Shown piece after piece: positions 10,245-49,055 of a stretch of 64,000 nt of DNA. A program made the position numbers and the translations under genes. Each line of letters opens with the position of its first letter. Position 1 is the stretch's first letter. This DNA comes from Escherichia coli (GTDB lineage: Bacteria; Pseudomonadota; Gammaproteobacteria; Enterobacterales; Enterobacteriaceae): assembly GCA_032372955.1 (NCBI GenBank), contig GCA_032372955.1_4725.1. One strand, given 5' to 3'. The notes beneath the pieces are model-generated. The model made no database searches. It was given only the letters and a program-made list of their open reading frames with translations, and was not told where the DNA came from.

Positions 10245-11694
10245 ACTCGGTGAAGTGTGGTTTATAACCAGCCTGCCATGCGGCGGTCATGGCGTCGTAG
10301 TTGATGTGTGAAGTGCCTGCCGGGAATGTCCAACCACTCAGATCCTGATTGAACGCGAAGCACCCAGACAACATATTGTTTGCATTCTTAACAGACGAAA
10401 CATCCCACGAACCGATCGGTTGGTTGAATGTAGCGCAACCGTAGAAGAGGTCCTTCATTGAAGTAATGTTGCGGGTGTTCCATTTGGTGATGTTCACGTC
10501 GTTAATAACGCTGCATCGCGTAAACATACCTTCTAACGATGTCCAGTATGCCGGGATATAATCGGGAACCTTAGTTAAACTGTTCGCCGCAAGGAATGAT
10601 GGGGCCTTAGGTAATCCGTTGTTCCAGTCAACGATTTCAGTGATGTTACCACCGGTGAAGCTTTGCTGTACCTCTGTATCTTCAACATTGGTAGGGGTAC
10701 CCGTAGCGACGATCGTACGTTCCGTAGTGTCCGCATAAGTGTGCCGATATTCATTATCGCCTGAGTCCTGCGTCGTCTTATTCCCATCACCCCAATCGAT
10801 ATTGACATTTGTCCAACCATCTAATGACAATATAATGCTGCCGCCTTTTGTTTTAAGAACGTATTGGATTGGTTTAGGTGAAGCGTGACCAACAACCATA
10901 GCACCCTTAAGGCTACCGATAACCCAATCTTTCTTGGTGGTTACCAGTAACTCGGCGTCACCGTATGACCGCACCTCTACTCTACGAGCGTCTTCGCTTC
11001 CGTTAATTGTCTGCATTGCTTGTTGCATTTGTTCGCTGGTAATATCACCATAACGAACCATGACGTTCAGGATATTCTGGAAGTACGCAGCGTCAAGGAC
11101 ACCTTCAGTTGTTTCGGCATTTCCGTTTTCGCCGATAACCGAGGTTGTTGCTAACAGTAACGAACCAGATGTGTCAGCTTCAACGCCATCCAGATAAACC
11201 AGATTCGTAAGATTGGTTTGCTTGATGATCGTAATCAAGCTCAACGTATCGTTAGCGATATTGAACTGAAGATTACCAGCCCAAACATAAGACGTGTTTG
11301 CAACCGGAACCGTAATGTCTTTAATACCGGTGTCTTCGAACGTAATCTGCTTATTCAGCTCGGATTCGAGGAAGTCGACGGTTGTGTCGAATACCAATCC
11401 GTAACGTTCAGCGATCGTGTTGATGATATCCCTTACGGCGGTATCATTTTTAACGATAACCCGTAACGGGATCCCAGTGAAGTTTTTAGCGATGTCTCGA
11501 CGGATATAGGTCAGGGACTGCTCGTTAAAGTAACGGCTAGCATCGTTCGGTTTGATCGTAACAACAACCGTTCCGGGCACTTCGCTTACCGGTTCAGTTA
11601 GTTCAAATTTTACGTCGTCTAATGTCAGCTGTAAGCTGTTTTTGCTATTTACTAACGCGAGAAGTTCGTCTTTCCAGCTTTGTTTGAGTTTCAT
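10243..11694 (-). CDS. putative receptor-binding/tail-fibre family protein: shared N-terminal anchor domain plus C-terminal DUF285/BspA-like repeats
   Basis: N-terminal ~130 aa paralogous to ORFs 53839..54366 and 60057..62669 (WKDELL..RRDIAKNFTGIPLRVIV..ERYGLVFD); C-terminal FYGCATFNQPIGSWDVSSV..MLSGCFAFNQDLSGWTF matches the DUF285 repeat pattern. Confidence 0.55.
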   Translation of the reverse strand: MKLKQSWKDELLALVNSKNSLQLTLDDVKFELTEPVSEVPGTVVVTIKPNDASRYFNEQSLTYIRRDIAKNFTGIPLRVIVKNDTAVRDIINTIAERYGLVFDTTVDFLESELNKQITFEDTGIKDITVPVANTSYVWAGNLQFNIANDTLSLITIIKQTNLTNLVYLDGVEADTSGSLLLATTSVIGENGNAETTEGVLDAAYFQNILNVMVRYGDITSEQMQQAMQTINGSEDARRVEVRSYGDAELLVTTKKDWVIGSLKGAMVVGHASPKPIQYVLKTKGGSIILSLDGWTNVNIDWGDGNKTTQDSGDNEYRHTYADTTERTIVATGTPTNVEDTEVQQSFTGGNITEIVDWNNGLPKAPSFLAANSLTKVPDYIPAYWTSLEGMFTRCSVINDVNITKWNTRNITSMKDLFYGCATFNQPIGSWDVSSVKNANNMLSGCFAFNQDLSGWTFPAGTSHINYDAMTAAWQAGYKPHFTE

Positions 11695-11793
11695 TTATTC
11701 TGCCTTATTAAATAAGTACAACGCATATACGTCATACGATCTTGCAACAAATACAGCATAAAGCTCTGCATGATGTCAGGTAGAGCTTCTTAA

Positions 11794-13875
11794 TCACCAT
11801 TCCAAGAACGCAGGTCGTGGTTTAATATCGTATTCCGTGGTGTTTACGGTAACGTATTGATCGTATCCTTCCATCGCCAACGTTTCTTGCAAGTTAACAT
11901 CATCTTGCTTGTTCACAACATATTTGACACCCGTGATTTCTTCAACAAGCTGTCGACTTAACTCCATGATTTCGTGGCTACGTGTAGAAACGTTACCCTC
12001 GCTTCCCGTATCTAACATGAAACGATAAATCCGAACAGGTTGCGTTTGCCCTACACGGTCAAGACGGCTGATGGCTTGGATTTCATCGGATGAACGCCAT
12101 GGGTTGTTCAGGAAAAGACCGACATTACACATCAGCATCGGAACCCCTTCAGCTAAGCTATCAAATGTTGCGATAGCGGGACCGCTGTCAGGATCATCGC
12201 GTAAGCGAGCAAGTATCTGGTTGATGTTCTTGTTGGTCTTCCCGTAAATGGGTTCAGGTAAGAAACCCGCATCACGAAGCATGTTGTCGACGCGCTCAAC
12301 CACCTGAACGTACGACGTGAAGATCAACACTTTGGCTTCAGCGTTGTTGATGTACCCTTCGAAGTCGATGTACTCCACCATGTCGACATGACACCGAATG
12401 CGGGCTGCACCTAGAACACGGGCCAACGCTTCACCCTGAATTTTCAACCCAACGTACTTGATGACACTCTTGGCGTCTTTGAAAGCAATCCTTAAATCGG
12501 AAGGAAGAACCGGCATGATAGAACGTTTTTCAAACGCATTGCAGAACATCGCATCTTCTTTGTCTCTGACGGGATCGTAACCTTTCTGGAAACGAGCGAC
12601 GATCGATTCGTATCGAGATAGCTCTTTACGTTCTCCGTCGGTACGAATAGTCTTACGATAGTAGTCCAAGGCGTCATCAAAAATCTTTCTGTAGTGTCCC
12701 CAGTTATCCTTGTAATACTTCGCCCGATCGCGTACAAATATCGCCATGTCGTCGCGGATACTCGAGATGGTATAATCGCTGCCGTTAGGGAGCTTCACGT
12801 AAACATCCTGAACTTCCGGTCGGGTTTTACGATAAGCTTCTTTAGGTACAACATGCATCATGAACCCAAGACGATGTCTGAGGATATCGTTAGCGCGACT
12901 GCTGGTTAAACCGTAAATCGCTTTGAAGCTATCGACCACCTGTCCTTGGAACATCGGGTCGATACAACCTAAACATGGGATCATCTCAGAACCCATCTGT
13001 TTAACGGGCGTACCCGACATAAACAAGACATGCACATCCGCATTCATGGTCTGACGCATCGTCTGTACGAGATCAACCAATCGTTGGGAACGTTGGCTGT
13101 TCTTGTCGTTGAAGTTATGGCTTTCGTCAACCACGATCAACACGCGCTTCGCTGTGCGTTTATGCTTGATCATTACATCGTTTAATAAACCCATCGACTC
13201 GTAATGCAGAAAATAATACTTATCGCTTTTCTGCAACTGTGATGGTGGCATTGTATCTGACCAGAACGCGGTTTCTGTTGCGGGGTCAACGATGGCTTTG
13301 TTTACATCGGATTGCCATGCTGAACGCATGGTGTTCTTAGGACAGCAGACCACAAATACATCGACGTTCATTGCGGCGCTTAAAGCCAATGCGGTGATTG
13401 TTTTACCGGCACCAGCACCCATCGCACACACGTATCCTTTCAGTCGGTATTTAGGTACGTTACGGTTATAGATGTCGATAAACTCATCTTGATAATCGAA
13501 CAGGGAGAGCGTTAGCATTTTGTTCATGCGTGCTTTATCGAGGATTGCAGGTTGTTCGATTGTGGTATTTTGCAGCCACGTTTCCTGCAGCAGTACCTCA
13601 ATAAGGTGTTTCAGCATGCGTTTGTTACTGCGGGTATTCTTTGCTTCGATGATCGTTTCGAGAATATAAACGAAATCGGGAAGGTAAAAGTTGTGGAGAC
13701 TGAGTCCACTAGAAGAGAAATTACGAAACATATGTTTCATAAATCGGGAGGTACCCCATATTCGCTGAATGTCATCTGAAAGACGCCAGGCATCGATACC
13801 CCCGATATGCACGGTGTTGTTACTCTGATTTTTAACCGCTATTCGGTTCATTAAACGATTGATTCTATCCAACAT
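11794..13875 (-). CDS. SNF2/DEAD-like SF2 helicase
   Basis: Walker A GAGAGKT, motif II VVDESHN, motif III FMSGTP, motif VI AISRLDRVGQTQPV; ATG at 13875 preferred over GTG at 13923, which lies inside stem-loop 13911..13939. Confidence 0.6.
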   Translation of the reverse strand: MLDRINRLMNRIAVKNQSNNTVHIGGIDAWRLSDDIQRIWGTSRFMKHMFRNFSSSGLSLHNFYLPDFVYILETIIEAKNTRSNKRMLKHLIEVLLQETWLQNTTIEQPAILDKARMNKMLTLSLFDYQDEFIDIYNRNVPKYRLKGYVCAMGAGAGKTITALALSAAMNVDVFVVCCPKNTMRSAWQSDVNKAIVDPATETAFWSDTMPPSQLQKSDKYYFLHYESMGLLNDVMIKHKRTAKRVLIVVDESHNFNDKNSQRSQRLVDLVQTMRQTMNADVHVLFMSGTPVKQMGSEMIPCLGCIDPMFQGQVVDSFKAIYGLTSSRANDILRHRLGFMMHVVPKEAYRKTRPEVQDVYVKLPNGSDYTISSIRDDMAIFVRDRAKYYKDNWGHYRKIFDDALDYYRKTIRTDGERKELSRYESIVARFQKGYDPVRDKEDAMFCNAFEKRSIMPVLPSDLRIAFKDAKSVIKYVGLKIQGEALARVLGAARIRCHVDMVEYIDFEGYINNAEAKVLIFTSYVQVVERVDNMLRDAGFLPEPIYGKTNKNINQILARLRDDPDSGPAIATFDSLAEGVPMLMCNVGLFLNNPWRSSDEIQAISRLDRVGQTQPVRIYRFMLDTGSEGNVSTRSHEIMELSRQLVEEITGVKYVVNKQDDVNLQETLAMEGYDQYVTVNTTEYDIKPRPAFLEW

Positions 13876-13910
13876 AATCGCGCTCGATTTAATAGAATGT
13901 ATGATAAAAA

Positions 13911-13939
13911 CTCCTCCCCACACCTTTCCTGGGGAGGAG
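13911..13939. promoter_or_regulatory. GC-rich stem-loop in a divergent intergenic region
   Basis: CTCCTCCCC(13911-13919)/GGGGAGGAG(13931-13939) between the start of minus gene 11794..13875 and plus gene 14084..14770. Confidence 0.4.
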
Positions 13940-14018
13940 GCCGGGGATGTCCCTTAAAATGACGTCATTCGACAATCCATAAAATACGATGGGCATCGAA
14001 ACGGACCAACACAAATCC

Positions 14019-14042
14019 TTTCACGGCTATATTACTTACGTG
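14019..14042 (+). promoter_or_regulatory. candidate phage promoter, TATATTAC-containing conserved motif (copy 1)
   Basis: TTTCACGGCTATATTACTTACGTG, 20/20 nt core identical to 43431..43450; about 45 nt upstream of ATG 14084. Confidence 0.45.
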
Positions 14043-14083
14043 GGTAAAGAAAATTTATTAATAGATTCAAAGAGGTACGTGCG

Positions 14084-14770
14084 ATGAAATCTTTATATTC
14101 GTTGGATTGTTTAAATTTCTTATCTCAGGAAACACGCGCTGAAGTAATTGAAAATATTCGGAAGAACGATCTTGCCCATCAAGAAGAACATGTGCTTGCT
14201 GTTGTTGAACTGGCAAATGAACTTGCTGATGTGGTTGGTATCATCAAGCCCACGGAACGTCGTCGTCTATTAACGGCTGCTTTTATGCATGATATCGCTT
14301 GCCACGAAAACAGAACATACCACCACCTTATCGGGGGTATTCGTGCGTCGGTTATACTGCTTCGTAACGAGCAGCATATTTTCACACCGGAAGACATCGA
14401 GGAGATACGCGTACTTATTGCTGAGCATCGTGCGTCGTATTCTGGTCCACGTAGCTCGGTTGCTTCTCAGGTGCTTCGTCTGGCGGATATGGGTCGTCTC
14501 GATAGCGAACGTTTTGGTATCCGTGCAATCGAACATCGTTACGGTCAGATGAGCAAAGAGTTCGCATTACAGGAAACCGCCGACTATCTTATTTCTAAAT
14601 TTGCGCCTGATGGCTACGCTTGGATTACGTATCCGGCGTTAGGTCAGCAACTTTATATGAAAGAGATTGCGGTGATTAAATCGCTCTGTGCGGATCGTGA
14701 TAAACTCATTGCTTATTTGGATGATGTTTATACGTATGTTGAAAAGAAACATGGTGAAATCATGTGTTAA
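14084..14770 (+). CDS. HD-domain phosphohydrolase
   Basis: H..HD..H..D pattern (EEHVLAV, AAFMHDIACHE, AEHRAS, LRLADMG); AGAGG RBS. Confidence 0.55.
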   Translation: MKSLYSLDCLNFLSQETRAEVIENIRKNDLAHQEEHVLAVVELANELADVVGIIKPTERRRLLTAAFMHDIACHENRTYHHLIGGIRASVILLRNEQHIFTPEDIEEIRVLIAEHRASYSGPRSSVASQVLRLADMGRLDSERFGIRAIEHRYGQMSKEFALQETADYLISKFAPDGYAWITYPALGQQLYMKEIAVIKSLCADRDKLIAYLDDVYTYVEKKHGEIMC

Positions 14771-14792
14771 ACATGAAAGCGGAGAATAATGA

Positions 14793-15275
14793 ATGAGTAT
14801 CGTTGATTTAACATTAACAGAAGTTGGTGATGGTATTGAGGTTTCGATGAAAACCTCCGACGATCGCACCGTTGTTGCTAAACTGGAAGAAACCCTGTAC
14901 GGCAATTACGTGGTGGGCGTTTCAGGGAAGGTGAGTATGTATCGCCTGGCTGGTATTTTAAGCGTCTTTGATGGGGGATTGCTGCCGTCCGACCAACTCG
15001 AGCTCCAGAACAAATTGATCGACAATGACTTCTACACGGAAAATGTGAAAGTCTTTGGTTACAGCATGATGGGTGGTGTATTTAGCGCCGCGACGAACAC
15101 GCTTAACTTCGGTACCCAACAACTGATTCAGTTCAGTATCGAAAAGGGTAAACTGAAAACGGCGTGGAAAGGCAGCGCTGCATTCACACCAACCGATCTT
15201 CTGCTTACTTCCGCAGAACAGCATTTAAAAGCAAGTAAATCGGGTCGTGCGTTTCTGGAGCAATTAAATCAATGA
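14793..15275 (+). CDS. hypothetical protein
   Basis: 160 codons, GGAG RBS. Confidence 0.5.
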   Translation: MSIVDLTLTEVGDGIEVSMKTSDDRTVVAKLEETLYGNYVVGVSGKVSMYRLAGILSVFDGGLLPSDQLELQNKLIDNDFYTENVKVFGYSMMGGVFSAATNTLNFGTQQLIQFSIEKGKLKTAWKGSAAFTPTDLLLTSAEQHLKASKSGRAFLEQLNQ

Positions 15276-17536: not shown

Positions 17537-18492
17537 TGAAAACGCTTATTGATACGACATGCCCTCATTGCGGACACGACATTTCGCTGGCATCGATTCG
17601 TTACGATATGTTTTCGGATATGCCGTTGCCGAACACGTGCTATGTTTGTACTAGCTGTTTGAAAACCGTTAAGGTATTTGTTGTCGATAACAGCGCAGAA
17701 CGCCATATTTCGTTTTTACCATCGGATGAAAAACACGAAGCGATTTGGTCGATTATTTTCTCTAATACAACTCGCCCAGCCAATCCGTTTGTTTCCAGTA
17801 CATCGATGGCTGTTGATGTCGATTGTTTTATGTCTGAGTTAACCTTGGGTACCGTCGAACATATTAATGCGATCGCCGATCTTTATATTGGTCAGTCGTT
17901 GAATCAAGGGCATCTGTCACCAAACGGGACTCTCTGTATCGAAGGAGACAACTACGAAGAGGCGATGTCGCATTACCGCACGCATCTGACGATACCCATG
18001 CGCTACATCAGCGATATTCAAGAAGCCGCACTTTTCGCAACCGATCTTGCGTGGTTATTTAATGCGGTTATCCATCAAGCAAATGAGGGTACGTTGTTGC
18101 AGAAAGTTGATGGTAAGATCGGCTGGTGCCACAGCGTGCGTAGTGCGGTTGTGATCGATTACTTATTGCGTAATCGGTGGATTGCCCAACTGTTTAATTA
18201 TTGGTATCAATACGTCTTGGATTACGACGTTGAGCCGGTTCTTTACAGTGCTGATGGTAGCGTCTGGTTGTCGCATGGGTTTGTTAAAGGGCTGGATGTT
18301 GATGAACCCCTGTTCCTCTATCCACGAGGATTTCGGGAACTAACGTTTGATGAGGCAATGGAACTGTTAAAACAGGATAATCCTGTCAACCACCATGAAG
18401 AGAACGCTCGTCGATTCAGTCCTGATCGTAAAGCGACGGATCTGTCCGACAGCAATGCTTCGATAATTCCAGCAGATCGTGTCTTGCATTAA
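17536..18492 (+). CDS. hypothetical protein with N-terminal zinc-ribbon-like CxxC pairs
   Basis: CPHCGH ... CYVCTSC near N-terminus; 318 codons. Confidence 0.55.
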   Translation: MKTLIDTTCPHCGHDISLASIRYDMFSDMPLPNTCYVCTSCLKTVKVFVVDNSAERHISFLPSDEKHEAIWSIIFSNTTRPANPFVSSTSMAVDVDCFMSELTLGTVEHINAIADLYIGQSLNQGHLSPNGTLCIEGDNYEEAMSHYRTHLTIPMRYISDIQEAALFATDLAWLFNAVIHQANEGTLLQKVDGKIGWCHSVRSAVVIDYLLRNRWIAQLFNYWYQYVLDYDVEPVLYSADGSVWLSHGFVKGLDVDEPLFLYPRGFRELTFDEAMELLKQDNPVNHHEENARRFSPDRKATDLSDSNASIIPADRVLH

Positions 18493-18507
18493 CAAGGGGG
18501 TCTCGGT

Positions 18508-19350
18508 GTGAAAATCAGTTATCAGGAACAGGATCATCGCTGTAAACACTGTGATAAAGATCTTAGTAAACCGATGCTTGCAGCATACGGTCAACACGAA
18601 CCAACGGTGGTATGTGATGACTGCGCAAGCCGCTACTCACTTGTGCGTGAAGGTGATGATGAGGGTATCCAACTTAAGTTACGTGATACCCATGAATATC
18701 GACTTCGTGTTGTCGCGGTACTGGCTCCACCGTACCAGAAAGGGAAACCCCGTAAAGCAGCATGGACGTTCGCGGAGTTCGATGTGGCGATTGATAAACC
18801 GATTACGAAAGGTCTTTCACCGTTCAACGACATCGTTGAGTATAACAACATCAAGAACGCGGTTGCTGATTTGCTCCCATTATCACCACACAGTTGTGTC
18901 TATGGGGTTGGAACGTTACCGCAGGTGTGTTGTGTCTTACCACGAGAAACATATATATCGTTAGGTGCCCGACAACTGATTAAGTTCTTTGGGGTATATG
19001 ACGATATGCTGAGTAAGATCGGTGAGCTTCTGGTTACCATGTCGAAAACCAAAGACGTTAGCCGGAAGAACAAAGATGTGCGTATTAGTCATGCGGTTTG
19101 TGCGCATCTGATGGCGGGGTCGATGTGGTTGGGTGATTACGCTAACACGGTTATTAGCCAGCTCCCCATTTCGTACGAGGTTGTGTTTAAAGATGGCGTT
19201 TTCTACGGCGTGCGTCGTAAAGATACGGCTTTCCAGCTGAAGAATATCATTCTCGACTTACCTATCGATCATCTTATCGCCACTGTTATTTCTGATCCCT
19301 CACGCGTTGTCGACATGGTACGTGGAAAACTAAAAGGTAACCCAGCATGA
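18508..19350 (+). CDS. hypothetical protein with N-terminal zinc-ribbon-like CxxC pairs
   Basis: GTG start after GGGGG RBS; CKHCDK ... CDDCAS. Confidence 0.5.
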   Translation: MKISYQEQDHRCKHCDKDLSKPMLAAYGQHEPTVVCDDCASRYSLVREGDDEGIQLKLRDTHEYRLRVVAVLAPPYQKGKPRKAAWTFAEFDVAIDKPITKGLSPFNDIVEYNNIKNAVADLLPLSPHSCVYGVGTLPQVCCVLPRETYISLGARQLIKFFGVYDDMLSKIGELLVTMSKTKDVSRKNKDVRISHAVCAHLMAGSMWLGDYANTVISQLPISYEVVFKDGVFYGVRRKDTAFQLKNIILDLPIDHLIATVISDPSRVVDMVRGKLKGNPA

Positions 19351-19658
19351 AACGACTATCTGCAAGACAGGTGTCGTTGTGTTACTACGGAATGGAGTAC
19401 GATGCCTTAGCAAAATTGTTTCGTCAGTATCTTGAAGATCATCACCTTACCAACGATGATCTCTTTTCTTATTCTTATTTGAACTACCCGATTAACATGA
19501 TACGCTACTCGGAAGCCGAAGGCGAATACCTGGTGGTTGCTTCCGTTATGCGTTATCTGTTAGTTGATCTATACAAACGTCTGTACCTGCCGGAGAGACT
19601 GCGTATACAAGAAACATTAAGGAGACTTCATAGTGAGCGTTTTACGGGAAGCGTTTAA
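19347..19658 (+). CDS. hypothetical protein
   Basis: 103 codons, ATGA overlap. Confidence 0.5.
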   Translation: MKRLSARQVSLCYYGMEYDALAKLFRQYLEDHHLTNDDLFSYSYLNYPINMIRYSEAEGEYLVVASVMRYLLVDLYKRLYLPERLRIQETLRRLHSERFTGSV

Positions 19659-20229
19659 GTTCGTTGCTGGAGAACAGACCGACGATGATATTCGGCGATT
19701 CATGGCATATATCGCACCGCTGAGTCACGATGGGGTTCCGGGACATAATGTGTTCCTGCCGTTGCGGGGTGTTTCGACAACAGCCGCCTATGTCCGTCTG
19801 TTAACCGAGATGTTGCGGATTAGCGAGCACCCTGGTGGTACCAACCGTGTTAGCTTGAAAGGGCTTGCTGAGCAATTATCTTACATGCCTGTTATCCGTG
19901 AGAAACCATCATGGGCGGAAGAACGTCGCGCGTTAACCCTGATACGCAATCTGGATTCTGATGCTTGGCGTGAGAACCTCATCACGTATTTGTTGATCAT
20001 CAAACGTCGTCAGAAACCAGCGAAGAGTCTGCTCATTATTGACGACAACGACCCGAACGTTGATTTGGTTGAGATCACACGAGCAATAAGCGCGTTGACC
20101 GGTGAATCAATCAATCCTAAACTTGAACCGTTGGCCGCAATCCGTCAGATGGTCAGCAGGCTGTCTGATAATACGGCCTTTGTCAATATTTGCAGCGATT
20201 ACGATAAAGAAAAGGAGAGTATTCGATGA
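19633..20229 (+). CDS. hypothetical protein
   Basis: GTG start after AAGGAGA RBS; 198 codons. Confidence 0.5.
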   Translation: MSVLREAFKFVAGEQTDDDIRRFMAYIAPLSHDGVPGHNVFLPLRGVSTTAAYVRLLTEMLRISEHPGGTNRVSLKGLAEQLSYMPVIREKPSWAEERRALTLIRNLDSDAWRENLITYLLIIKRRQKPAKSLLIIDDNDPNVDLVEITRAISALTGESINPKLEPLAAIRQMVSRLSDNTAFVNICSDYDKEKESIR

Positions 20230-20561
20230 TAGACAGTATCGAACTTAATGAAGAGCAGCCGTTATCGGTCGTACAACAACTTTTAGCGCAGCATGAGCTT
20301 GTTTGGTCGGAAGAGCGTACGCCATGTGAAAACTGTCGCTATAACCATGTTGTCGCTGAGACCGTTTTTGGTTCTCTAACTATCGAGTGGAAAGGTTGGA
20401 AGGATTATACCAGCTACGACTGCGATTTACCTTTCCCAGTCAACGATGAGTTTCCACACATCAACGCTGATAGTTTAGATGAAGCGAAAGCGAAAGTAAA
20501 AGCTTGGTACGACTACGTGATATTGGCTGGACTCGGCCTGACAACAGATAAACCAGAATAA
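20226..20561 (+). CDS. hypothetical protein
   Basis: 111 codons, ATGA overlap. Confidence 0.5.
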   Translation: MIDSIELNEEQPLSVVQQLLAQHELVWSEERTPCENCRYNHVVAETVFGSLTIEWKGWKDYTSYDCDLPFPVNDEFPHINADSLDEAKAKVKAWYDYVILAGLGLTTDKPE

Positions 20562-20573
20562 TGAAAAGGTGTT

Positions 20574-21899
20574 ATGATGAGCAAACTACTGTTTGAAATT
20601 AACGGGAAAGAATATACACCGCCCCAGGCAGTTATCGGTGCGTTATTACGATACACTGCATACCGGCGTCAAGGATGGTTGTTTGATATTGATGGACCGG
20701 CGTTTATTACAGCGATACAGGATGCTATCGCCCCGAAGAAATTATGCGATAATTACAATACTGAACTGTCGTACAAATTATCGCCTATGGTTCCATATGC
20801 GTCCTATAAGGAACTTTTGACGGGTATATGTTCGTATGAACAAGGTGGGTCCACATCGTACACGCGTGCGCTGGAATTCGTAGAAGAAATAGTGCGTCGA
20901 TTGAAAGTTGATCCGTATAACACGCGTAAGGGAATAATACAACTAATGGTGTACGATTTCTCGGCTAGCCAAGAAATCATCGCGGAGTATAATCCTTACT
21001 TACTTATACGTGCTTTCTTCTGGATCGATGCAGCGCTAGATGATCGTTCCGGACCATGCCGTTTAGCGATTCATGCCGGTGAACGCCAGTTGAAGCAATG
21101 GTTGGAAGATTGCGATATCAATTTGCATGGCATGACGATACCCGATTTCTTCGAAGACTATTTTTCGTTATCGGGACTCGATGATGCTGTAGTAGAACTG
21201 AAACCTACGGATACCGATCCGGTTGTCGTCGAACTTAAAACCGAATCGGATACCAGCAACCATTCGTTCGAGCCGTTAGCGGTAGAGAAGCCTGCATTTT
21301 GTTTAGATGTTGAAAACCTTAGTTTGGAAAAGAATGGAGTATTGCTGGAAATCGGTATCGTGTTCTTCGATCTGGCTAATCCAGAATCCATTGTTAACGG
21401 TCCGCGTATAGATATCTTCCCTGACGTTCATGGTCAAATCGCTGACGGCGGTCGTATCAGTGAATCAACAGTAGAATGGTGGCAAACCAAAGCACCAAAG
21501 GAAGCGCGCGACTATTGTTTTCAACATTGTAAGGCAATGGGTTATAAAGAAGCCATCGCCGAAGTAAATGCGTTCGTCAACAGTATTCGTGACAGAATGA
21601 CTGAATACTACGGTAAAGATACCTTCTATTATCTTGCTCGTGGTGAAACAGATTGGCCTCAATTAGAGCATTGGTTCCGTAAAGCGGGCTTTAAGCCAGT
21701 TTGTCGTTATAACCAGGTTCAGGATATCCGTTCGATGATTGCTGCGTATCAAGACAAACCGGTATCCATCTTAGGCACCAAAGAGTATCCAGACATGGGT
21801 ATTCCGCTGATCCGTCATACCGCTATCGGTGACGCAATCATGGATGCGTACGACGTTGCGTTAGCGCGAAGCATGGCGACGTCTAAGCTACTGAAGTGA
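20574..21899 (+). CDS. protein with C-terminal DEDDh-type 3'-5' exonuclease-like domain
   Basis: FCLDVENLS (Exo I D-x-E-like) and HTAIGDAIMDAYD (Exo III H-x4-D-like) in the C-terminal half. Confidence 0.45.
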   Translation: MMSKLLFEINGKEYTPPQAVIGALLRYTAYRRQGWLFDIDGPAFITAIQDAIAPKKLCDNYNTELSYKLSPMVPYASYKELLTGICSYEQGGSTSYTRALEFVEEIVRRLKVDPYNTRKGIIQLMVYDFSASQEIIAEYNPYLLIRAFFWIDAALDDRSGPCRLAIHAGERQLKQWLEDCDINLHGMTIPDFFEDYFSLSGLDDAVVELKPTDTDPVVVELKTESDTSNHSFEPLAVEKPAFCLDVENLSLEKNGVLLEIGIVFFDLANPESIVNGPRIDIFPDVHGQIADGGRISESTVEWWQTKAPKEARDYCFQHCKAMGYKEAIAEVNAFVNSIRDRMTEYYGKDTFYYLARGETDWPQLEHWFRKAGFKPVCRYNQVQDIRSMIAAYQDKPVSILGTKEYPDMGIPLIRHTAIGDAIMDAYDVALARSMATSKLLK

Positions 21900-24721: not shown

Positions 24722-24925
24722 ATGTTAACGAAGGAATCCAAGAAGAACATTGAAGCATGGATTTTTGATAATGCGCCGTTGAATCTATCATTGGATCCGA
24801 AGGTTCGTGGTTTACAAGCTGATTTTGCGTATAACGTGTTACATGGTTGCTGTTACACGTTAAGCAATCCTAAATATCGTTATAAATTTCAGGAACTACT
24901 CGAAACACTTAGAGGATTAAAATGA
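24722..24925 (+). CDS. hypothetical small protein
   Basis: ATG after GAGGTG RBS; ATGA-coupled to thyA. Confidence 0.4.
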
Positions 24926-25941
24926 AACAGTATTTGGACCTTTTGCAAGACATCATGGATAACGGTCGCGATAAAGCCGATCGCACAGGTACCGGAACCC
25001 GTTCCGTATTCGGGCGTCAAATGCGTTTTGACTTGAAGAAAGGATTCCCGCTGGTAACCACCAAGAAGATTCACCTTAAGAGCGTTATCCACGAACTGCT
25101 CTGGTTTCTTAACGGTGATACGAACGTTGCTTATCTTCAAGATAACGGTGTTCGTATCTGGAATGAATGGGCTGACGAAGAAGGGAATCTAGGACCGATT
25201 TACGGCAAACAATGGCGGGAATGGATCGACTATAAAGTGGTTGTTCCGCACGATACAGAACGTACTCGTGAGTTGATGCAACGCGGCTATGAGTATTGCG
25301 GCATCCTTGACGCCGGTATGCTAAAACACCTCGTGTATGTTAAACCTCACGATCAGATTGCAAACGTAATGCGTCAGCTTAAAGAAGATCCTGATTCTCG
25401 ACGGATCATCGTTAGCGCGTGGAACGTAGGCGATTTAGACGATATGCATCTCGCTCCGTGCCATTCATTTTATCAGTTCTATACCCACGAGCTCACGATC
25501 GATGAACGCGTTGATTATGTTCAACGCAATGACGTATTAAGAACCCAATGGGTTACGGATGACGTACGGCATAGTGAAACGGAACTTTGGTTGAACGCGC
25601 ATAACGTACCAACACGTGCTTTATCCTGTCAGCTTTATCAGCGATCGTGCGACGCAGTGCTTGGGAAACCGTTCAACATCGCATCGTATTCGTTGTTAAC
25701 GCATATGCTTGCCCAACAGCTGAATATGGACGTTGGTGAGTTCGTGTGGACGGGTGGAGATTGCCACATCTATCACAACCACTTCGAACAGGTTAAAGAG
25801 CAGCTCAGTCGTGAGCCGTACCCATTACCGAAGCTAACAATCGTACGTAAACCGGAAAGTATTACGGATTACCGTTACGAAGACTTTGTGTTTGTTGGAT
25901 ATCAATCACATCCGGCTATCAAGGCTAAGGTGGCGGTGTAA
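24922..25941 (+). CDS. thyA: thymidylate synthase (ThyA) with two internal insertions
   Basis: [63 protein letters not shown] closely match E. coli ThyA; 339 aa versus about 264 aa. Confidence 0.9.
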
Positions 25942-25952
25942 ATTAACAACTG

Positions 25953-25972
25953 AGGGTGGGTACGCCCACCCT
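25953..25972 (+). terminator. GC-rich stem-loop after thyA
   Basis: AGGGTGGG(25953-25960) TACG CCCACCCT(25965-25972). Confidence 0.45.
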
Positions 25973-25988
25973 AATACGGAGAACTATC

Positions 25989-26282
25989 GTGGATGAAGTA
26001 AGTTCTGAACTGTTAGAAGCAATGGATGAGCGAGTAACCACTATCGGTTTTTATCTCACTGGTGTTACTGAAGCATTACCCATACCGAAAAATAGTTACG
26101 AGATGGAGGCTGATAGCATACTTACACAAACCCTTCCTATACAGCTTAAAGCAGAAATTAACGAACGTCTACGCGTCGATATGCTTACGAAAGAACAGCG
26201 TGAATCCTTGCTGGAAGCATTAGATACCATCGACAAGAGAATGACGCTTCTTAAATTAGGTTTTAAGAAGCAATTGCATTAA
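25989..26282 (+). CDS. hypothetical protein
   Basis: GTG start after GGAG RBS; track start 25956 lies inside stem-loop. Confidence 0.45.
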   Translation: MDEVSSELLEAMDERVTTIGFYLTGVTEALPIPKNSYEMEADSILTQTLPIQLKAEINERLRVDMLTKEQRESLLEALDTIDKRMTLLKLGFKKQLH

Positions 26283-26312
26283 GAATATCGAGATTTATTT
26301 TAGGAGTTTAGA

Positions 26313-26453
26313 ATGGCCTGGTCATACCCCTATCGTATTCTGATAGGTGTTAAAAATAAGAAAGGTCCCCGTAAAGGTAAATGGAGATACACCTGGTTAT
26401 GCGGACAGATAGAACTAAAACCAAGGATCTTCTCTGCCTGGAGTAAAAAGTGA
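26313..26453 (+). CDS. small basic protein with KKGPRKGK motif (46 aa)
   Basis: Not in ORF track (<60 aa); TAGGAG RBS; stop overlaps next start. Confidence 0.35.
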   Translation: MAWSYPYRILIGVKNKKGPRKGKWRYTWLCGQIELKPRIFSAWSKK

Positions 26454-26656
26454 TGATTAATTCTCTACAGCGCCACATACTAAATCATGTTATCAACGAC
26501 ATGATTGGTGTTCGTTTAGTCAAAGGAAAACACAAGAAAGGTTGCAATAAAGGAAAACGGTTCGTGGCGTATGTGGTACCAACGACTGAACGAAGGATCG
26601 CAAATGCTGCGGTGGATTCTATCGCGAAAGCGATGCCGTGGCTTATGTTGGACTGA
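26453..26656 (+). CDS. small basic protein
   Basis: 67 codons; KGKHKKGCNKGKRF motif. Confidence 0.4.
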   Translation: MINSLQRHILNHVINDMIGVRLVKGKHKKGCNKGKRFVAYVVPTTERRIANAAVDSIAKAMPWLMLD

Positions 26657-26682
26657 CTTTTTAGAGGAAAGAGAGGTTACGC

Positions 26683-26874
26683 ATGCAATGTCTCGAAGTG
26701 ACAGAAGCAGGTACGCTAGAATATATCGACCCGATGTATTCATCCCGATTTATCGCCACTCGATATTTGGATCGTGTTTATAACAAACGCGTTAAACGAG
26801 GCCCAGGTAAAGGCAGACAGAAGAAAGTAAGTATTTATAAATGCCATAAAGCGCCTAATCCGGTGTATTATTGA
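26683..26874 (+). CDS. small basic protein with KRGPGKGR motif
   Basis: 63 codons, GAGAGG RBS. Confidence 0.4.
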   Translation: MQCLEVTEAGTLEYIDPMYSSRFIATRYLDRVYNKRVKRGPGKGRQKKVSIYKCHKAPNPVYY

Positions 26875-27218
26875 AGATAGCGTTGAAGAGGATCTACCCT
26901 ATGCTTAGCATCACTTATTTTCGTCGATGCTGGTATATTCATCAGTACCGCAAAAACAGGAATCAGATTATCGATATAAAGTTTCATATTGACTCTTTAC
27001 TCAAACTAGAGAAGGTGAAAGAACAACCGTTGGTTGTCGTTCGGTTGAGGTCTTTATTAGAACGTTTACGTATAGCGTCGCAGGTGAATGAACAGCTTCA
27101 TCAGGCGAATAAAGCGCGTGCGCCAAGGGTTGTACGGAAATGTTATCGTTCCGGATTTAACCATCGATTGAAAAGTATACGTAACAGTTTAAAGCATATA
27201 ACGGAGAATATGGCATGA
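26871..27218 (+). CDS. hypothetical basic protein
   Basis: 115 codons, ATGA overlap. Confidence 0.45.
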   Translation: MKIALKRIYPMLSITYFRRCWYIHQYRKNRNQIIDIKFHIDSLLKLEKVKEQPLVVVRLRSLLERLRIASQVNEQLHQANKARAPRVVRKCYRSGFNHRLKSIRNSLKHITENMA

Positions 27219-27859
27219 AAGATATCGCGGAAACAAAAGAAGAGAAATACACCCAACTGAAGAAGAAACTGGAGAAACAAGGTTTTCTAGCGAAACGTTT
27301 AATCCGTGTTATGCGTTATAAATACAAATGCTATTTCGGTACGGAGCTATCGAACGGTGATGCGTTTGTTAACGAGTGTCGTCGGACAATATCTCGCATT
27401 AATGACTTACAAGCGCGTAATGATTGGTGGTACAAAGAATCGGAAAACTTCACTGATACCGACCGCCGTACCGTATCCCACTTAGAAAAACAGTTGAAGG
27501 AGTTAATGGAAGACAGAGCCGACTTACAACGTCGAATCCATCAGCGATTTGATGAGTGGGAGAAGGGGGCTTTTATTAACGGTGATGAGATACGTATCGA
27601 TAACATCATTAGACGTCTTATCGCTAAAGATGATGAGGAAGACTTACCGTTACCGGACGATCACGATACCGCGAAACAGGTTCTCGAACAAGCGGTACGT
27701 TGCATGGGTGCTTTGCTCTCCCTGGGTCATATCGAACGCAAAAAGATCGTTCAATGTAAATTCGAAAAGCTTCTCGTTCAGTTCCACCGCAAGTTCTTTT
27801 ATAGCACCGAAAAAGAAGTTGCTGTACAACTAATAGAAGGTATCAATGAAGTTAAATAG
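27215..27859 (+). CDS. hypothetical protein
   Basis: 214 codons, ATGA overlap. Confidence 0.5.
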   Translation: MKDIAETKEEKYTQLKKKLEKQGFLAKRLIRVMRYKYKCYFGTELSNGDAFVNECRRTISRINDLQARNDWWYKESENFTDTDRRTVSHLEKQLKELMEDRADLQRRIHQRFDEWEKGAFINGDEIRIDNIIRRLIAKDDEEDLPLPDDHDTAKQVLEQAVRCMGALLSLGHIERKKIVQCKFEKLLVQFHRKFFYSTEKEVAVQLIEGINEVK

Positions 27860-28214
27860 AACTGTTCGGAGTATACAGTCATTTTGGTATCGATATTGGT
27901 TTAATCGTAATTTACGTGACTTCGTTCGGCTTATCCGTTATGTGAAGCTCATGATAAATTGTCGTGAGTTAAATAGAGAGTTGGGGATAGGTAGTGCGAG
28001 GAAATATACGTACGATACAGACCCGTTTATCGAGTACTGCAATTCGTATATAAGAGATATCGTGGTTCTGATGAAATCGAGCCATGAGTTGTTTATGTAT
28101 TGCGATTCTTGCTACAAGTCCTTTCTCGGACGCCGTGTTCGTGCAAATCGAATAAGAAATGCGATCTCTATGTTACATTGGCGATTTTACTATTTTCCAG
28201 ACCCCGATAAATAA
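27846..28214 (+). CDS. hypothetical basic protein
   Basis: 122 codons. Confidence 0.45.
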   Translation: MKLNRTVRSIQSFWYRYWFNRNLRDFVRLIRYVKLMINCRELNRELGIGSARKYTYDTDPFIEYCNSYIRDIVVLMKSSHELFMYCDSCYKSFLGRRVRANRIRNAISMLHWRFYYFPDPDK

Positions 28215-28225
28215 ACAACGTGTAT

Positions 28226-28552
28226 ATGAATCAGACAGCTATAATTGATATTTATAACTATCGTAAATACACATCCATGCTCGATGCTGCGACTTCGCTG
28301 TTAGAGCACAAGTTACGCGAATGCAACGTACAGACCGCTACAGAAGAAGTTCTGGAAATCGCGCAGTTGTTACTTGATCGTTTAAAAGAACTTCGAATTT
28401 ACGTGGCGAGCATGTATGGGAATGGTCCCGATGCTGTAAGTATTGCTTACAACAAACCAAGATTGATGGTGGAGAAGATTATCGAGCAAACCGGTAACAT
28501 CGACAATGAAATCAGCGCCTTTATAAGCGGCGTCAATACGTTAAAACTTTAA
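28226..28552 (+). CDS. hypothetical protein
   Basis: ATG 28226 (track GTG 28220). Confidence 0.45.
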   Translation: MNQTAIIDIYNYRKYTSMLDAATSLLEHKLRECNVQTATEEVLEIAQLLLDRLKELRIYVASMYGNGPDAVSIAYNKPRLMVEKIIEQTGNIDNEISAFISGVNTLKL

Positions 28553-44727: not shown

Positions 44728-44937
44728 ATGATTCCAGCTAACCCTCTTTTAAGTATCAATCCTTTCCACAGCAATCCTGGTGTCGATCAGATACAACCTG
44801 CTTTTTTATCACAGTTCCGGGCTGATTATGATGGCGACACCGTAACTGGAAACAGTATCCGTCTGTTGAATCGCCGCAAGAAAGGTCCAGGTAAAGGCAA
44901 AGTAAAAATCATTCAACGTTTAATCTCTTATGTATAA
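44728..44937 (+). CDS. small basic protein with RADYDGD and KKGPGKGK motifs
   Basis: ATG 44728 after AAGGA RBS (track TTG 44710); QIQPAFLSQFRADYDGDTV resembles the RNAP beta-prime NADFDGD loop; followed by stem-loop 44955..44980. Confidence 0.4.
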   Translation: MIPANPLLSINPFHSNPGVDQIQPAFLSQFRADYDGDTVTGNSIRLLNRRKKGPGKGKVKIIQRLISYV

Positions 44938-48483: not shown

Positions 48484-49055
48484 ATTGGATTAAGGTAGTG
48501 TTGTTTATTATACTTGTTGCTGTATCTATCGGACTATTCTTTTACACACGTCGGAAAGAACAGAAACGTAAACCGAGCAGACCGTTGGTTACCGGTGTTG
48601 TAACACCCGCAAAACAGTCTGAATTACCTAAATCGCTTTATATGACGGAAGTGACTTTAGATGCATCTAAAGGCAATGAGCTTGTGCTCGAAATGTTAAT
48701 GCAGAAACATTATAAAGATGCTGTATTGACTGCCGAGTATTGGGTTGATCCTAACAGGCCAGGCAAACGCTGGCGCGCATGGTATCCTTTACATGTGCCG
48801 TGCACAAACACCTGGATTGAGTGGCCTGCATTGGTTAGCTATCGTTCAACCGATAAAGCGAACAAAGCAGCGTTCTTCTTAGACACCAATCGTTTCAAAT
48901 GGTATCCCGATAAGGTAACGAATGAGCCGGTATGGATGCCTAAGAAAGGTGGTACGTGCTTTACTGTTGGACAAGTCCTGTTAACAGATTTGGACGACCA
49001 GAACAACTTCTTTGTCATTGAAGAAGAAAAGCTTAACGATCTGATTCCTTACTAA
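48480..49055 (+). CDS. membrane-anchored protein (N-terminal TM helix)
   Basis: WIKVVLFIILVAVSIGLFFY followed by RRKEQKRK; followed by strong intrinsic terminator. Confidence 0.5.
   Translation: MNWIKVVLFIILVAVSIGLFFYTRRKEQKRKPSRPLVTGVVTPAKQSELPKSLYMTEVTLDASKGNELVLEMLMQKHYKDAVLTAEYWVDPNRPGKRWRAWYPLHVPCTNTWIEWPALVSYRSTDKANKAAFFLDTNRFKWYPDKVTNEPVWMPKKGGTCFTVGQVLLTDLDDQNNFFVIEEEKLNDLIPY

Follow-up and report, generated by a model that had tools for sequence, protein, structure and literature searches.

A stretch of 64,000 nucleotides from an Escherichia coli genome assembly (contig GCA_032372955.1_4725.1; hereafter the window) encodes four members of a protein family that has not been described before and that belongs to nucleus-forming (phiKZ-like) jumbo phages; its proteins are very small and strongly basic. 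Three of the open reading frames (ORF1, ORF2 and ORF3) are clustered, and a fourth (ORF4) lies elsewhere in the window. Positions 25900–28300, which include the cluster, are 96.6% identical over their whole length to Escherichia phage vB_EcoM_Goslar (NC_048170, 237,307 bp), a nucleus-forming jumbo phage whose minus strand corresponds to the plus strand of the window. The four proteins (46–69 amino acids (aa), isoelectric point (pI) 9.8–10.6, net charge +5.6 to +10.5) share a Lys/Gly-rich octapeptide, and purifying selection acts on all four ORFs, which are real genes. In ORF4 this basic loop and a RADYDGD segment form one conserved module, which is related to RNA polymerase beta-prime, is also found in other jumbo phages and went unnoticed in the initial annotation of the window. 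The genes and their diagnostic segments are:

26313..26453, plus strand: ORF1, 46 aa, pI 10.6, orthologue of Goslar gp139, MAWSYPYRILIGVKNKKGPRKGKWRYTWLCGQIELKPRIFSAWSKK
26358..26381, plus strand: ORF1 motif KKGPRKGK, invariant in seven orthologues, with a synonymous CCC/CCT change
26453..26656, plus strand: ORF2, 67 aa, pI 10.4, Goslar YP_009820823; alternative GTG start at 26450
26534..26557, plus strand: ORF2 motif KKGCNKGK, a variant in which C/Y/V replaces P
26683..26874, plus strand: ORF3, 63 aa, pI 9.8, Goslar gp137
26794..26817, plus strand: ORF3 motif KRGPGKGR, the same as the motif of the Siatvirus proteins described below
44728..44937, plus strand: ORF4, 69 aa, pI 10.4, Goslar gp102
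44788..44859, plus strand: beta-prime-like part of ORF4, IQPAFLSQFRADYDGDTVTGNSI, similar to the catalytic Asp-triad loop and next strand of jumbo-phage RNA polymerase beta-prime
44878..44901, plus strand: ORF4 motif KKGPGKGK, at the tip of a predicted hairpin

The four ORFs are present at the coordinates, and with the peptides, that the initial annotation had quoted for them, and the motif is common to all four, including the short ORF with RADYDGD. A strict pattern ([KR][KR]G[PC][GRN]KG[KR]) and a loose one ([KR]G..KG[KR]) each match four times in the six frames, in these ORFs only; 200 second-order Markov simulations gave a mean of 0.095 matches (maximum 2) for the loose pattern and 0 for the strict one. 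The complete Goslar genome contains the loose pattern four times, exclusively in gp139, YP_009820823, gp137 and gp102. The DNA consensus that the ORFs had been said to share, GGYCCNGGTAAAGG, is exact in ORF3 and ORF4 and has one mismatch in ORF1, but ORF2 has GGTTGCAATAAAGG instead. Allowing up to two mismatches adds one further match (48786–48799, minus strand), which is chance level. The suggestion that a repeated DNA or RNA element might simply be read in frame fails on these counts: out-of-frame or non-coding copies of the DNA pattern do not exceed chance, and neither the window nor Goslar has a copy of the motif outside the four coding frames. The sole DNA repeat in the ORF1–ORF3 cluster is the motif-coding stretch itself, and Rfam gave 0 matches in the window.

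Searching 5.8 billion proteins by profile gave 103 matches, every one an orthologue of one of the four ORFs, located on Goslar-like contigs of ~235–250 kb or on fragments. Such contigs reflect ‘persistent’ Goslar-like phages in enterobacterial isolate assemblies (bioRxiv 10.1101/2024.12.31.630880). All four genes have been annotated or were called in each of the Goslar-like genomes examined, and their reading frames are intact across dozens of genomes. Between the window and Goslar, substitutions within the ORFs are mostly synonymous, and three fall inside motif codons (CCC/CCT, GGA/GGG and GGC/GGT). Across Goslar-like genomes the eight motif codons show ~12 synonymous compared with 3 amino-acid variants. 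Ratios of nonsynonymous to synonymous substitution rates (dN/dS; Nei–Gojobori, against the most divergent genomes) are 0.22–0.45 for the four genes, with 0.23–0.28 for ORF1, 0.22–0.28 for ORF2, 0.36–0.42 for ORF3 and 0.45 for ORF4. A Shine–Dalgarno-like sequence can be read upstream of each ORF, and the ORF1 stop and ORF2 start share one base (TGATG). Because the peptide is kept while its codons drift, and Rfam matches and out-of-frame copies are lacking, selection acts on a peptide and not on a DNA or RNA element. The other proposal of the initial annotation, a family of small basic proteins with a shared peptide motif, is borne out by conservation, dN/dS, synonymous drift, pI and the relatedness of ORF1, ORF3 and ORF4.

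In family alignments the motif and its flanks are the best-conserved parts of the proteins. The ORF4 and ORF3 families align in hhalign (probability 70%, E=4e-5, 33 columns); DYDGDTV, which ORF3 lacks, falls in a gap of 7 residues. The ORF1 and ORF4 families align with E=6.8e-5. These profile matches identify ORF1, ORF3 and ORF4 as paralogues at the level of sequence. ORF2 has only a 12-residue motif stretch in common with ORF4 (E=0.01, probability 4%).

The shortest member, ORF1, is essentially a hairpin with a short tail. In ORF4 the C-terminal 39 residues are invariant (ADYDGD-x13-KKGPGKGKVKIIQRLISYV) and the N-terminus is fast-evolving. The sole fairly confident element in the AlphaFold2 model of ORF4 is a hairpin with strands at residues 44–52 and 59–67 and GPGKGK between them (block-mean predicted local distance difference test score (pLDDT) 67–83). 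ORF2 has a variable N-terminus, the KKGCNKGK loop and a C-terminus, KAMPWLMLD, that is invariant in all orthologues. It is predicted to form a helix (4–18), a hairpin at the motif (27–32/35–40) and a second helix (46–60), with a mean pLDDT of 62.6. A Foldseek comparison of the ORF2 model with the PDB gave only noise with E>1, as expected from a pLDDT of 63.

Some Goslar-like genomes carry structural variants of these genes, for which the loci are L011 4334–4624, L008–L010 6001–6291 and L016 1770–2429. The ORF1 variant is 96 aa long and has a 48-residue acidic N-terminal extension. ORF3 is deleted in one Goslar-like genome (L016). In some genomes ORF4 has a 30-residue insertion with a second RIRLLV(D/R)RK copy of the strand that precedes the loop.

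The C-terminal half of ORF2 has a likeness of its own. Residues 33–67 (window 26549–26653; KGKRFVAYVVPTTERRIANAAVDSIAKAMPWLMLD) gave a borderline PDB profile match (E=0.04) to a strand–helix segment in the N-terminal region of glutamyl-tRNA synthetase (GluRS), and for residues 33–66 the values were E=0.04 and 0.19 against GluRS structures 5H4V and 7K86. ORF2 was rejected as a class I GluRS N-terminal region, since its 67 residues include neither HIGH nor KMSKS and Pfam gave no match at E up to 1. The likeness, as read from sequence profiles, could be due to chance or could mark another recycled enzyme fragment.

The segment upstream of the basic loop in ORF4 resembles the catalytic region of jumbo-phage RNA polymerase beta-prime. 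A counterpart of the Asp-triad loop, RADYDGD, is found in ORF4 only and is absent from ORF1, ORF2 and ORF3. Aligned with the spliced exon junction of the Goslar virion RNA polymerase (vRNAP) beta-prime (gp205), ORF4 gave a Smith–Waterman z of 6.7 (p ~3e-4). A protein homologue search with the spliced vRNAP beta-prime segment found no match; tblastn succeeded, and the beta-prime tails that it found in five other jumbo phages were aligned and compared with an alignment of the module. The two alignments match in hhalign with a probability of 87% and E=4.2e-6 over 24 columns. The top PDB matches of the module profile are weak (E=0.33) and are to beta-prime of the AR9 RNA polymerase (7S00_d and 7S01_d), and ORF4 matches PHROG 2986 weakly (E=0.17 over 23 residues).

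The shared signature, hydrophobic-x-x-hydrophobic-G-[GA]-D-[FY]-D-G-D-[TV]-[VI] together with the following strand, also characterizes the C-terminal region of the beta-prime N-piece (Goslar gp205 plus exon; AR9 7S00 chain d). In both cases it lies at or near the polypeptide C-terminus and is restricted to the same phage group. Unlike the 400–500-residue subunit, the module is only 40–50 residues long and lacks the rest of the double-psi beta-barrel, it has the KKGPGKGK loop in place of ~30 residues (a helix and a hairpin), and its Asp triad has been lost from ORF1, ORF2 and ORF3. The basic loop lies beyond the end of the profile alignment to beta-prime. Alignment with MAFFT also has the Lys/Gly loop replacing ~30 residues of the beta-prime tail, and it pairs the last strand, VKIIQRLISYV, with the conserved ...LVLRNITG end, the latter without statistical support. 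These alignments are best explained if the upstream half of ORF4 derives from, or is a close copy of, the catalytic-loop region that lies towards the C-terminal end of the N-piece of the phage’s split beta-prime.

In Goslar, group I introns are annotated in the beta-prime-like N-pieces gp205 and gp247, where they fall inside the DFDGD codons or just ahead of them (...GLGGD/FDGDTVSVNVLYS... and ...GYNADF/..., the slash marking the split). These introns carry HNH genes (L005 ~17600–20910, record 167,600–170,910; L006 ~11570–15264, record 211,570–215,264). The match of Goslar ‘gp185’ to the beta-prime tail of Erwinia phage Simmy50 shows it to be the downstream exon of gp247. The only DGD codons (GACGGTGAC, ~168,213) are flanked on one side by the HNH ORF and on the other by a second structured, GC-rich stretch, which suggests that two introns enclose a micro-exon of 9 nt or that splicing is unusual here. 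We considered whether ORF4 could be the missing DGD and tail of the intron-split non-virion RNA polymerase (nvRNAP) beta-prime (gp247) and rejected this, the DGD codons being at ~168,213 and the tail in gp185. A reading of KKGPGKGK as the ‘GDK...RHGNKG’ lysine loop of the beta subunit was likewise discarded, as no such loop in the annotated polymerase subunits of Goslar is motif-like. Membership of a polymerase-subunit family was also rejected, with no Pfam polymerase match at E up to 1 or 10, a non-significant match to PHROG 2986 and a length of 46–69 aa.

Searches with the window proteins themselves reach few phages. Using tblastn against 50,697 phage records we found Goslar only, and IMG/VR contained only Goslar and one close relative. 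An exhaustive hidden Markov model (HMM) search with the ORF4 family against 1.84 billion representatives added one new true relative, the 46-aa protein UQT02910 of Serratia phage Totoro (P0105; MSILQGDFDGDTIIGYYVRLAHKVKKGPGKGTSRRVVIFMRTMGVN). An 848-aa match from the same search (P0104) is a false positive, a thrombospondin-type DxDGDG calcium-repeat protein. From Totoro, tblastn led to 220–225-aa proteins of ~300-kb Klebsiella and Serratia phages (Siatvirus KpLz-2_45, Centimanus, MJ359 and others), which have the module at the C-terminus and end in ...FVDFDGDVIKAYRLTLSSPIKRGPGKGRIRVVSRFISVFNQ. A broadened profile then recovered further proteins of 45–91 aa on large metagenomic contigs (P0106–P0112), most of which have GD[FY][DEN]GD 12–20 residues before [VI][KR][KR]GPGKG.

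The module, D[FY]DGD-x12-17-[KR][KR]GPGKG, recurs in Totoro, Siatvirus and metagenomic jumbo-phage contigs, mostly at or near the C-terminus of small proteins. The Totoro, Siatvirus, P0106 and P0110 genes are positional orthologues: each directly follows a conserved gene of ~415 aa (380 aa in L055) that is transcribed divergently. This neighbour belongs to phrog_2921 (Siatvirus copy) and has the Goslar homologue gp224; its family assignment gives no functional clue. At the Totoro/Siatvirus locus only the hairpin is constant, and P0110 lacks the acidic loop. By a rough estimate, chance co-occurrence of the two motifs would be expected ~0.3 times in the whole database, compared with at least six apparently independent lineages.

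The octapeptide was also back-translated and scanned against IMG/VR. Beyond the Goslar-like and Siatvirus copies it occurred only in unrelated contexts, at roughly chance frequency. Among the rejected carriers are a 71-aa phage protein ending in ...KYIVKKGPGKGKEPKK and a bacterial-type MHEFK...KRGPGKGRKVTSRKQAIAIG protein. An unrelated phage family of ~71 aa (IMG/VR L023, L026, L028, L029, L031 and L032) ends in ...GANGTLKYIVKKGPGKGKEPKK; here the octapeptide follows a strand-like segment at the extreme C-terminus, with no strand after it.

Comparison with known protein families yielded leads of varying strength. The four window proteins and those of Totoro, Siatvirus, P0106 and P0107 match nothing below E=0.1 in Pfam-A, PHROGs v4 or NCBIfam 20. 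Profile matches in the PDB to LSD1, uS11, tau, SZT2 and GluRS are all weak and serve as leads only; those to the tau PGGG repeats (E=0.79) and to the uS11 KGPGPGRE loop (E=1.7) are at chance level. The uS11 loop is similar in having a strand, K-G-P-G-x-G-R and an amphipathic segment (LEVMVKGPGPGRESTIR compared with IRLLNRRKKGPGKGKVKIIQ; non-significant at E=1.7), but unlike the window proteins it runs into a helix of a larger alpha/beta fold.

The KOW hairpin of uL24, NusG and Spt5 consists of a hydrophobic strand, a tight Gly/Lys-rich loop and a second hydrophobic strand in small basic nucleic-acid-binding proteins, and ...GKDKGKRGKVKNV... of uL24 resembles ...KKGPGKGKVKII...; both likenesses are leads only. 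KOW spacing is G-D-x-V-x-V-x2-G-x2-K-G-x2-G-x-V, and in the family described here the distance from the GD start to the loop, read from the sequences, is 6–8 residues longer. KOW (PF00467) was rejected: searched at E up to 1, the four window proteins gave no match, nor did ten module sequences at E up to 10, and uL24 and NusG chains are not among the PDB profile search matches. In the arms of HU and IHF (proline tip) and in the AT-hook (GRP core), a Pro/Gly tip flanked by Lys or Arg reaches into nucleic-acid grooves. The window proteins are similarly small and very basic and have a Pro/Gly tip with Lys/Arg flanks on an extended element. Unlike HU/IHF, they are not predicted to have that fold, and no sequence or profile relationship connects them. 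An AT-hook was rejected, the sequences being K-K-G-P-G/R-K-G-K or K-K-G-C-N-K-G-K with no G-R-P core.

Considering all of this evidence, the explanation that we tentatively prefer, leaning in part on predicted structures, is a selected family of basic hairpins whose ancestral form was related to beta-prime and which may contact nucleic acid. The common core would be a strand, a loop ([VI][KR][KR]-G-P-G-K-G-[KR]) and a second strand, predicted to form a long beta-hairpin in ORF4. The ancestral form, as in ORF4, Totoro, Siatvirus and several of the metagenomic proteins, would have had a GD[FY]DGD loop 12–17 residues upstream. In the Goslar lineage the gene may have been duplicated to give four copies, with progressive loss of the acidic loop: ORF3 would have lost it, ORF1 would have been reduced to the hairpin, and ORF2 would present a similar loop in a different scaffold. 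We hypothesize that the basic hairpin tip contacts nucleic acid (an RNA or DNA backbone or groove), a function suggested by the charge and the predicted hairpin, and that the hydrophobic strand faces mediate self-association or docking. The proteins might then act as early or middle non-virion accessory nucleic-acid binders. In keeping with this explanation, the main text and two supplementary files of the Goslar virion cryo-electron microscopy and mass-spectrometry paper do not name the four genes (10.64898/2026.04.21.720040).

Several points weigh against this explanation. Searches of Pfam, PHROG, NCBIfam and PDB sequences gave no significant match and revealed no homology to nucleic-acid binders, and overall AlphaFold2 confidence is low (mean pLDDT 56 and 63). 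With the motif removed, pairwise Smith–Waterman comparisons among the four proteins are mostly non-significant, and the loop of ORF2, judged by its sequence, may be convergent. That G-P-G-K-G itself is strictly conserved, and not just positive charge, is at least as well explained by a specific protein partner as by generic nucleic-acid binding.

The main rival, to which we give about half the weight of nucleic-acid binding, is that these are mini-proteins directed at RNA polymerase. They would dock on the split multisubunit polymerase of the phage or on that of the host, replacing the tail of the beta-prime N-piece or sitting near the active centre, and would serve to assemble, regulate or inhibit the enzyme, with the basic tip in contact with the nucleic-acid scaffold. 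The likeness to beta-prime is the only significant remote similarity found, and the family is confined to jumbo phages with split beta/beta-prime polymerases. In most members, as in the beta-prime N-pieces, no more than ~10 residues separate the end of the module from the C-terminus, and several small members start 5–10 residues before GDFDGD, which is the group I intron split point in Goslar beta-prime. However, ORF1, ORF2, ORF3 and P0110 have lost the acidic loop and kept the hairpin, which makes the hairpin the selected core, and the profile alignment to beta-prime stops short of the basic loop. The Goslar polymerases also have DGD codons and tails of their own, so that no piece is missing, and the family shows no genomic linkage to polymerase genes.

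Somewhat less probable is a short linear motif, in which the G-P-G-K-G loop would be a recognition peptide for a protein partner or for targeting, carried on otherwise unrelated scaffolds; the partner could be a host machine such as the ribosome, or the peptide could serve in sorting relative to the phage nucleus. The paralogues are poorly conserved outside the motif, ORF2 shares the loop only, and at the Totoro/Siatvirus locus the N-terminal part varies from a few to ~180 residues while the hairpin is constant. Glycines and proline are also held more strictly than charge alone would need. Against this, the flanking strands appear in the models to co-vary with the loop as a structural unit, the uS11 and tau likenesses are no better than chance, no partner is known, and we did not find the motif in the searchable literature.

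We regard as unlikely that free-standing mini-proteins were born from the 3′ end of the intron-split beta-prime gene, starting at the DFDGD codons. They would then retain a Mg-binding Asp-triad loop attached to the basic hairpin and, as active-site or tail mimics working in trans on the transcription machinery of nucleus-forming phages, tune or block a multisubunit polymerase; ORF1–ORF3, which lack the Asp residues, would be derived binders of nucleic acid or polymerase. Slightly further down we place the reading that the genes are decaying, functionless fragments of duplicated polymerase (and other) genes, with the loop as inherited baggage. ORF4 is fragment-like, ORF3 is missing from one genome, ORF lengths and termini vary, and the dN/dS of ORF3 and ORF4 (0.36–0.45) is relaxed; yet dN/dS is well below 1 in all four genes, dozens of genomes have intact frames, the genes keep their ribosome-binding sites and coupled starts, and the motif is retained between jumbo-phage groups of different host genera. 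Chance, or a repeat at the nucleic-acid level (binding site or structured RNA) that simply happens to be in frame, is effectively refuted: ORF1 and ORF2 do share a 33-nt direct repeat at 76% identity, and GGYCCNGGTAAAGG occurs three times, but every copy is read in frame within an ORF from the coding strand, intergenic copies are absent, third codon positions vary, Rfam has no match, four copies are observed where chance predicts 0.095, and it is the peptide, not the DNA, that Totoro and Siatvirus have in common.

The clustered genes ORF1, ORF2 and ORF3 are annotated in Goslar as hypothetical proteins, and they lie immediately downstream of thymidylate synthase and a 97-aa ORF. This synteny is kept, and the three-gene cluster retains its position in diverged Goslar relatives. 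The block had been described as AT-rich; it is only mildly GC-poor (42.3% GC for 26313–26874 and 41.3% for 26313–28214, compared with 45.7% for the window). A terminator scan of the coding strand found no interrupting terminator-like site in the co-directional block. Directly after the thymidylate synthase stop (~25953–25972) there is a perfect GC-rich stem-loop, GGGTGGG-TAC-GCCCACCC, with no T-run, which the scan missed; it may terminate transcription by the phage polymerase or stabilize RNA.

Thymidylate synthase itself is intact in the window (24922–25941, 339 aa). In one divergent Goslar-like phage (L007 7347–9474, ENA contig k141_17454) it is split by a GIY-YIG/NUMOD3 (I-TevI-like) endonuclease gene, an arrangement that recalls the T4 td intron, and in L018 thyA is likewise called as two ORFs. 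Two neighbouring small genes, at 26901–27218 and 27846–28214, have similar aromatic/basic starts when compared by eye (SITYFRRCWYIHQYRKNRNQII and SIQSFWYRYWFNRNLRDFVRLI), and may be a second local pair of paralogues.

Nucleus-forming jumbo phages are rich in unannotated small genes, and the signature of this family is sharp and searchable. The family is narrow, and its evolutionary link to a polymerase active-site loop is unexpected. The genes are selected as proteins and are linked to the catalytic loop of the phage’s own split RNA polymerase. If the products are merely lineage-specific accessory proteins, four ‘hypothetical’ genes still gain an annotation, with a DNA or RNA element ruled out. 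Should the hairpin prove to bind nucleic acid or the polymerase, a new and compact element for such binding would be at hand, and the family would also document the recycling of an active-site segment of an essential enzyme into a mini-protein, possibly helped by introns that cut at that site.

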